DNA from: Escherichia coli
Lineage (GTDB): Bacteria; Pseudomonadota; Gammaproteobacteria; Enterobacterales; Enterobacteriaceae
Direction: 5' to 3' (one strand)
NCBI RefSeq assembly: GCF_003334785.1
Contig: NZ_QOWV01000001.1
DNA: 64,000 nucleotides
The position numbers and the translations under genes are program-made. How positions within the stretch are numbered: the first letter of the stretch is position 1; the number at the start of each line of letters is the position of its first letter. This document shows, piece after piece, positions 47,091 through 47,420 of the stretch. Under the pieces are notes generated by a model. That model was not told the origin of the DNA and searched no databases. It saw only the letters and a list, made by a program, of their open reading frames with translations.

Positions 47091-47122
47091 CAGATGTAAA
47101 ATTATTTTGTCCCTTTAATTAT

Positions 47123-47160
47123 AAAGCAGAGTTATGTTTAAGCTCTGCTTTATTTATTTG
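47123..47160 (+). terminator. Intrinsic terminator downstream of paaY
   Basis: AAAGCAGAG-N11-CTCTGCTTT followed by T-rich TATTTATTTG. Confidence 0.55.
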
Positions 47161-47420
47161 AGTATTAATTCATACCGTTTTTTCATCATATAATTATTTA
47201 TAATGAGAATGTGGTTTTAATTTGTAATTTATATTATATACACAATTTATATATTTCATGGTCTTTTTTTATTCACCTGAATTATAATTGTGAATTATAG
47301 GAAAGTATGTTTGATTAGATAATAATCTACTGGCAATATTGGATGTCTTCTATGTTTTAAATAACTAATTGGTCGGGTTAGTGCATCCGGCTTTCTTTAT
47401 ATTCGCCAGAAGGATTTATT

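Follow-up and report, generated by a model that had tools for sequence, protein, structure and literature searches.

AT-rich DNA upstream of an intact ydbA gene in Escherichia coli corresponds to a K-12 promoter island and is probably an H-NS-coated regulatory head

The 330-bp interval between paaY and ydbA, at positions 47091-47420 of a 64-kb stretch of Escherichia coli DNA (hereafter the window, whose numbering is used throughout), is the same DNA as a promoter island already catalogued in E. coli K-12, and in this sense it is an ordinary and known feature. We consider it probable, at roughly 65%, that the interval constitutes the H-NS-coated regulatory head of an accessory ydbA module and that it keeps ydbA poorly transcribed under laboratory conditions. 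Both the occupancy by H-NS and the promoter-island status come from the K-12 literature; repression of ydbA by H-NS is inferred. What is new in this analysis is the co-inheritance of the region with ydbA, the conservation of its composition despite fast divergence, and the instability of the ynbG reading frame that it contains.

Composition of the interval

Two features define the locus:

47091-47420, no strand: AT-rich paaY-ydbA interval, lowest-GC 330-bp window and lowest intergenic region of the 64-kb window
47421-53189, plus strand: intact ydbA, 1922 codons, encoding a BigA-like autotransporter (ORF, RefSeq, NCBIfam)

The interval runs from the end of the paaY stop codon (47090) to the ATG of ydbA (47421). 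Its GC content was 25.2% (98 A, 35 C, 48 G and 149 T), compared with 49.8% for the whole window, giving a z value of -4.9 against all 330-bp windows; the minimum-GC 330-bp stretch of the 64 kb starts at 47092-47098. To delimit intergenic regions, gene coordinates were transferred from an annotated genome that differs from the window by only 8 mismatches over 38 kb and 6 over 26 kb, and the paaY-ydbA interval was the most AT-rich of the 29 regions obtained, the runner-up having 32.0% GC. The mean for the 23 regions of at least 100 bp was 39.6% (standard deviation, 6.5), and five other regions lay at 32-33%. All 101 of the 100-bp windows with a GC content of 20% or less fell inside the interval, whose core (47155-47310) had 19% GC and whose ynbG coding sequence had only 13.6%. 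The windowed GC analysis thus bore out the sequence-only reading, which had described the region as markedly AT-rich and unlike the neighbouring intergenic DNA; an AT content this high is a characteristic of H-NS-bound silencer or nucleation regions.

Identity with a K-12 promoter island and published H-NS binding

The 330 bp were 100% identical to the corresponding DNA of E. coli K-12 MG1655, window position x being equivalent to position x+1417971 of NC_000913.3 and to x+1415993 of U00096.2. This mapping places the following feature over the interval:

47068-47452, no strand: equivalent of K-12 promoter island 1463061-1463445 (U00096.2), reported to be H-NS-bound (coordinate mapping, identity and PMC3661553)

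This island, listed as 1463061_385 and described as 'paaY(+)/ynbG(-)/ydbA_1(+), intergenic', is one of 78 K-12 promoter islands (Panyukov and Ozoline, 2013, PMC3661553, Table 1 and supplementary file 2). By definition, such an island is at least 300 bp long, and PlatProm predicts in it at least 8 start points, irrespective of strand, for each 100-bp window (Shavkunov et al., 2009, PMC2731890). For our interval, this density of start points follows from the complete identity with K-12 and from the published list, and its proxy, the number of -10-like hexamers, reached here the maximum of the window (18 per 330 bp). Islands are also associated with horizontally acquired or accessory genes, and columns B and E of the published table mark this association for 1463061_385 (PMC3661553). 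In agreement with this, about 45% of E. coli genomes have the region and ydbA, and a clean absence is seen in 37%. As a class, the 78 islands bind RNA polymerase in vivo and yield little productive transcription, giving only short RNAs (PMC3661553).

The H-NS code assigned to the island is 'K' and not 'A'. This code means that binding was seen by chromatin immunoprecipitation (ChIP) in MG1655 by Kahramanoglou et al. and in W3110 by Oshima et al., but that the island was not scored as H-NS-bound in the ChIP-chip data of Grainger et al. (PMC3661553). Over promoter islands, H-NS covers up to 90% of the total island length (PMC3661553). Since the 330 bp are identical to those of K-12, where the island is H-NS-positive in published ChIP experiments, binding of H-NS to the interval is supported. 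Thus, of the earlier proposal that the region is an H-NS nucleation site, the binding itself stands on two of three published K-12 studies (PMC3661553); the physical argument offered for it, phased A-tracts and curvature, was tested and found no backing, as described below.

All the H-NS binding data come from K-12, in which ydbA is a pseudogene split by IS2 and IS30, whereas in the window the gene is intact (1922 codons). The K-12 island and the interval otherwise share their extreme AT content, the crowding of promoter-like hexamers on either strand, the reported binding of H-NS, and the association with a gene that has been flagged as a horizontal acquisition. A search of the literature for expression of ydbA in an hns mutant returned no data. 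In K-12, the ydbA transcript rose 7.7-fold when RNA polymerase lacked the omega subunit (PMC5811629), which shows that ydbA is normally held low.

The interval also resembles the appY island and other H-NS-silenced AT-rich regions in having an AT-rich upstream segment, a coating of H-NS, a poorly expressed accessory gene and adjoining IS insertions (IS1 in the case of ydbA). The textbook cases of H-NS-silenced AT-rich regulatory regions are bgl and proU. Unlike those of the appY, bgl and proU type, ydbA has no defined downstream silencer element, and its silencing, like any activation by IS elements, is putative. A further parallel is offered by ycgV and yfaL, cryptic autotransporter adhesin genes of K-12. 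The islands upstream of both genes are H-NS-positive in all ChIP studies (PMC3661553, Table 1); their sequences are unrelated to that of the ydbA island, which additionally holds the annotated gene ynbG. Cryptic, H-NS-bound adhesin genes are a familiar theme in E. coli, to which the interval adds little beyond bookkeeping. Studies of the intact YdbA autotransporter should expect silence in standard media.

Anatomy of the interval

The following elements were recognized between paaY and ydbA:

47121-47153, plus strand: intrinsic terminator after paaY, a 13-bp stem followed by TTATTTGAGT (terminator scan and RNA fold)
47194-47259, minus strand: ynbG (b4674), 21-codon ORF MKYINCVYNINYKLKPHSHYK (RefSeq annotation WP_010723099.1 / YP_002791240.1; UniProt YNBG_ECOLI)
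47273-47322, minus strand: candidate ynbG promoter and ribosome-binding site, TTATCT (47322-47317), 17-bp spacer and TATAAT (47299-47294), by eye
47286-47281 and 47278-47273, minus strand: second TATAAT and AGGTGA, respectively, in the candidate ynbG promoter area, by eye
47311-47339, plus strand: candidate ydbA core promoter, TTGATT (47311-47316), 17-bp spacer and TGgCAATAT, an extended -10 (hexamer 47334-47339), by eye
47371-47392, plus strand: leader hairpin of 8 bp and then TTCTTTATAT, 28 nt upstream of the ydbA ATG (terminator scan and RNA fold)
47409-47414, plus strand: ydbA Shine-Dalgarno sequence GAAGGA, 6 nt upstream of the ATG and unchanged in every allele

The hairpin that follows paaY, 31 nt past its stop codon, contains a perfect 11-nt inverted repeat and has a T-rich tail. 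Its predicted folding energy was -16.1 kcal/mol on the plus strand (z, -4.5) and -14.2 kcal/mol on the minus strand (z, -6.3). It therefore combines the traits of a Rho-independent terminator, that is, a stable G+C-containing hairpin and a T-run near a stop codon. Given that it also folds on the minus strand, where it lies 41 nt beyond the ynbG stop codon, it probably ends both convergent transcripts, those of paaY and ynbG. The terminator stem is degraded in alleles that lack paaY. No other tandem or dispersed repeat was found in the interval, and an Rfam scan of positions 46500-48000 at an E value of 1 or less returned no RNA family.

The genes ynbG and ydbA point away from each other, their start codons lie 161 bp apart, and their candidate promoters are arranged back to back. 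On the minus strand, the TTATCT-17-TATAAT element (47322-47294) could serve as the ynbG promoter, with a predicted start near 47287; for its part, TTGATT-17-TGgCAATAT could be the promoter of ydbA, with a predicted start near 47346. The latter sits in the best-conserved non-coding block of the interval. The hairpin in the putative ydbA leader had a folding energy of -9.4 kcal/mol on the plus strand (z, -1.9) and no structure on the minus strand, a difference due to its three G-U pairs.

This anatomy qualifies two terms of the sequence-only reading. The region is intergenic in that it lies between paaY and ydbA, but a gene of 21 codons, ynbG, is annotated in it on the minus strand. Similarly, it is upstream of ydbA in a regulatory sense only over about 160 bp (47260-47420), the rest holding the paaY terminator and the divergent ynbG.

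The product of ydbA is named in RefSeq as a BigA/YdbA N-terminal beta-barrel domain-containing protein, and its match to the NCBIfam model auto_BigA scored 1075.9 bits, below the cut-off of 3400 bits. Many intact YdbA-type autotransporters (2600-2770 aa) are labelled 'EntS/YbdA MFS transporter' in RefSeq, which looks like a mix-up of the names YdbA and YbdA in the annotation.

Distribution and divergence among E. coli genomes

The AT-rich region was found in 2436 of 5426 complete E. coli genomes, and the first 600 nt of ydbA in 2404 of them. In strains without the whole paa operon the region still precedes ydbA, beside either ydbL or a 329-bp remnant of paaY. In 2024 of the 5426 genomes paaY and pdxI are adjacent, and the AT-rich region, ynbG and ydbA are gone together; the deletion begins immediately past the stop codon of paaY and leaves approximately the last 20 nt of ydbA (window positions 53165-53200 were compared), so that paaY is directly followed by the ydbA terminator. 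Co-presence, attachment to ydbA in the absence of the paa operon and joint deletion all indicate that the AT-rich region belongs to the ydbA module and not to paaY. The region and ydbA thus behave as one unit of gain and loss in E. coli.

The sequence of the region changes rapidly. In divergent alleles it was 78-80% identical to that of the window, compared with 92-94% for the 5' end of ydbA and 90% for the paaY remnant, which makes its rate of divergence roughly three times that of the flanks. Its GC content was nevertheless kept at 25-29% in these divergent alleles, and at 25-33% across 34 metagenome-derived haplotypes. Three metagenomic haplotypes with unrelated 5' sequence were left out; they are probably assembly chimeras, the switch lying inside the low-complexity AT-rich core (∼47175-47222).

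Conservation was uneven along the interval. Among five allele classes, invariant columns were fewest (40-53%) at 47192-47296, which comprises ynbG and the DNA upstream of it, and they rose to 80% at 47312-47356 and to 90-100% from 47383 into ydbA. All 8 pairs of the leader hairpin (47371-47392) were retained in all 10 genome alleles, where the changes were one-sided only and gave no statistical power for covariation. In the metagenomic haplotypes, four stem changes keep the pairing and two singletons break one pair, and four of the six loop positions vary.

The persistence of the AT content in all alleles, while the sequence and the ynbG frame drift, suggests that composition itself is maintained. 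This is difficult to reconcile with a passive composite spacer, in which terminator plus T-tract, tiny ORF, two divergent promoters and leader would simply add up to AT-richness, and binding of H-NS would be incidental and exert no control over ydbA. Such a spacer agrees with the ordinary role that can be given to each sub-part, with the generally AT-rich character of E. coli intergenic DNA (see the mean of 39.6% GC and the five other regions at 32-33% given above) and with a number of promoter-like hexamers that is the one predicted from composition (see below). However, all the other intergenic regions of the window have GC contents well above the 25% of the interval and the 19% of its core, and binding of H-NS to the interval was scored in two ChIP studies (PMC3661553). 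We therefore regard the passive spacer as unlikely and favor the H-NS-coated regulatory head.

Promoter-like hexamers

The sequence-only reading had noted TATA-like runs, and these were indeed abundant. Seven perfect TATAAT hexamers occur in 47091-47420, counting both strands, and the 18 -10-like hexamers make it the densest 330-bp stretch of the window (mean, 1.9; standard deviation, 2.1). Even so, this abundance is what the composition predicts, since mononucleotide shuffles of the interval gave 12.8 ± 4.1 such hexamers (P = 0.13). Similarly, a scan with the sigma-70 consensus found 3 sites against 2.5 expected, with no enrichment beyond composition.

This density bears on a second alternative, that an excess of promoters and not H-NS is responsible. 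Overlapping promoter-like sites on both strands would hold RNA polymerase in complexes that are unproductive or collide and that give only short RNAs, and ydbA would be weak regardless of H-NS. The high number of hexamers on both strands and the back-to-back candidate promoters of ynbG and ydbA are in accordance with it. A model of this kind has been proposed for promoter islands generally (PMC3661553) and for appY, whose activating mutations left H-NS binding as it was (Bykov et al., PMC7054387). Mutagenesis of 25 island fragments, on the other hand, gave no evidence of repression by extra -10 or -35 boxes and revealed repression by H-NS in some of them (PMC11661796). Promoter excess appears rather improbable as the explanation. 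Only a minority of the island fragments respond to deletion of hns, and the paaY/ynbG/ydbA_1 island is absent from the 25 that were mutagenised (PMC11661796).

Periodicity, curvature and H-NS motifs

The phasing attributed to the A/T tracts in the sequence-only reading was not detected. The power of AA/TT dinucleotides at periods of 10-11.5 bp was 0.53, below the mean of dinucleotide-preserving shuffles (0.68 ± 0.33), of which 61.5% reached 0.53. Six tracts of at least four A or four T residues occur in the interval, with spacings of 7, 73, 37, 49 and 91 bp.

Curvature, whose prediction had been suggested as a check, was also ordinary overall. With a wedge model, the mean for the interval was 11.5 degrees, compared with 10.1 for the window, and the ratio of end-to-end distance to contour length (0.91-0.92 with two wedge models) was the median of all windows and indicated a path straighter than that of 70-79% of the interval's own shuffles. 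A single local peak, of 25.7 degrees, was predicted at ∼47262 (98.7th percentile), adjoining a T7 tract. A positive control of phased A6 tracts came out strongly bent, as expected.

Curved DNA is a classic target of H-NS, and the local bend beside the T7 tract is the one observation that fits an intrinsically curved, structure-specific nucleation site built on phased A-tracts; with no 10- to 11-bp periodicity above that of shuffles, and with global curvature at the window median in both models, such a site is largely refuted in silico and very improbable.

A high-affinity 10-bp H-NS motif, tCGATAAATT, was reportedly defined by Lang et al. in 2007. It was not enriched in the interval, where a single site has 2 mismatches (minus strand, 47244) and five sites have up to 3, numbers not above those in shuffles of the region or in other windows. 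The interval therefore displays neither the curvature and phased A-tracts nor the 10-bp motif expected of an H-NS nucleation region, and because neither curvature nor a specific motif was found, the most likely basis of H-NS binding is AT content together with a narrow minor groove.

Proposed mechanism

In the H-NS-coated regulatory head that we propose, the order of the elements is the paaY terminator, the fast-evolving minus-strand ynbG, the back-to-back candidate promoters, and a short ydbA leader in which the hairpin is followed by a strong ribosome-binding site. Filaments of H-NS assembled over the 19%-GC core (47155-47310) would occlude RNA polymerase, or trap it, at the many -10-like hexamers, and productive transcription of ydbA would then need relief from H-NS. 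The conserved 110 bp adjoining ydbA would carry the real promoter and the leader.

Several lines of evidence argue for this model, including the extreme composition, the identity with K-12 and the published H-NS-positive island, together with the highest density of -10-like hexamers in the window. The joint inheritance of region and ydbA, the low GC content kept in the 34 haplotypes despite divergence, the effect of omega and the H-NS-positive islands of ycgV and yfaL point in the same direction. Against it stand the negative result in the data of Grainger et al., the lack of 10-bp motif enrichment, phasing or curvature in the interval, and the restriction of the binding data to K-12. The unchanged H-NS binding in activated appY mutants (PMC7054387) and the minority of hns-responsive fragments (PMC11661796) also count against it.

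The ynbG reading frame

The ORF found in the interval is identical to the annotated protein (RefSeq; UniProt YNBG_ECOLI), whose gene in MG1655 is named ynbG/b4674. Its source is given as Hemm et al., 2008, in a transposon insertion sequencing (TraDIS) study (PMC5821084), in which ynbG received no transposon insertions and was labelled 'potentially essential' (PMC5821084). Nevertheless, a clean deletion has removed ynbG from 2024 complete genomes, and its frame is not intact in about 1000 others; ynbG is thus not essential in E. coli generally, and it is dispensable in the species despite that label.

The frame was intact only in K-12-like alleles, at least 99.5% identical to the window. In the 96% alleles it starts from an internal Met and has 18 codons; in the 93% alleles it has either 6 substitutions in its 21 residues or a frameshift, and in the 78-80% alleles it has no start codon. 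The conservation of reading frame expected of a small-protein gene was thus lacking, and ynbG is not a conserved gene. Its composition follows that of its surroundings, given that 14 of the 21 YnbG residues are K, Y, N or I, which are encoded by AT-rich codons.

It is possible, although we hold it only tentatively, that ynbG is a young ORF born by chance in an H-NS-coated, promoter-dense AT-rich island, that is, a natural bacterial 'proto-gene'. A search for outgroups by which gain and loss of ynbG might be polarised, made with a 22-mer across the ydbA start in contigs representing one genome per species, found E. coli only.

A 'constitutive promoter' identified by genomic SELEX with RpoD (CTGACA-17-AATAAC) has been assigned to ynbG (PMC3946193). 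We rejected it as the ynbG promoter, since its actual position is 48465-48493 on the minus strand, antisense and about 1.05 kb inside ydbA, outside the AT-rich region.

Sigma-54 site within paaY

A sigma-54 ChIP-seq site, IS16 (TTGGCATGGAAAAAGCA), lies inside paaY, with a predicted transcription start 464 bp upstream of ydbA (PMC4591121). In the window it corresponds to positions 46944-46960 on the plus strand and points toward ydbA. Its distance falls within the range of 360-760 bp upstream that the authors linked to promoters of downstream genes (PMC4591121). Transcripts from this site would need to pass the paaY terminator to reach ydbA. Strains of the Rb-23 type, in which paaY is reduced to its last 329 bp, have CTGGCATTGAGAAAGCA at this site, with the GG and GC cores kept and three changes, all of them elsewhere.

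The sigma-54 site and the conserved 110 bp, with its extended -10 candidate promoter and its terminator-like hairpin that folds on the plus strand only, might together make up a switch for the adhesin that works by conditional read-through or by anti-silencing. We judge this less likely than the origin of ynbG as a proto-gene.

IS insertions and strain context

IS1 is found recurrently at or in the AT-rich region. In strain 22AR0118 it replaces all but the last 34 bp before ydbA, and in strain 300081 the start codon of ydbA adjoins one end of an IS1. During laboratory evolution, a line of MG1655 gained IS1 at nucleotides 21-29 of ydbA (PMC9769844). In many genomes ydbA is interrupted by IS1, IS2, IS3, IS4, IS5 or IS30; in the strain of the window it is uninterrupted, and strains IAL7250 and P13-6, which match the window, likewise carry the intact allele. 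Elsewhere in the window (16102-17648), uspF directly follows ttcA. In K-12 these two genes are presumably separated by the Rac prophage, and if so, the strain of the window is devoid of Rac.
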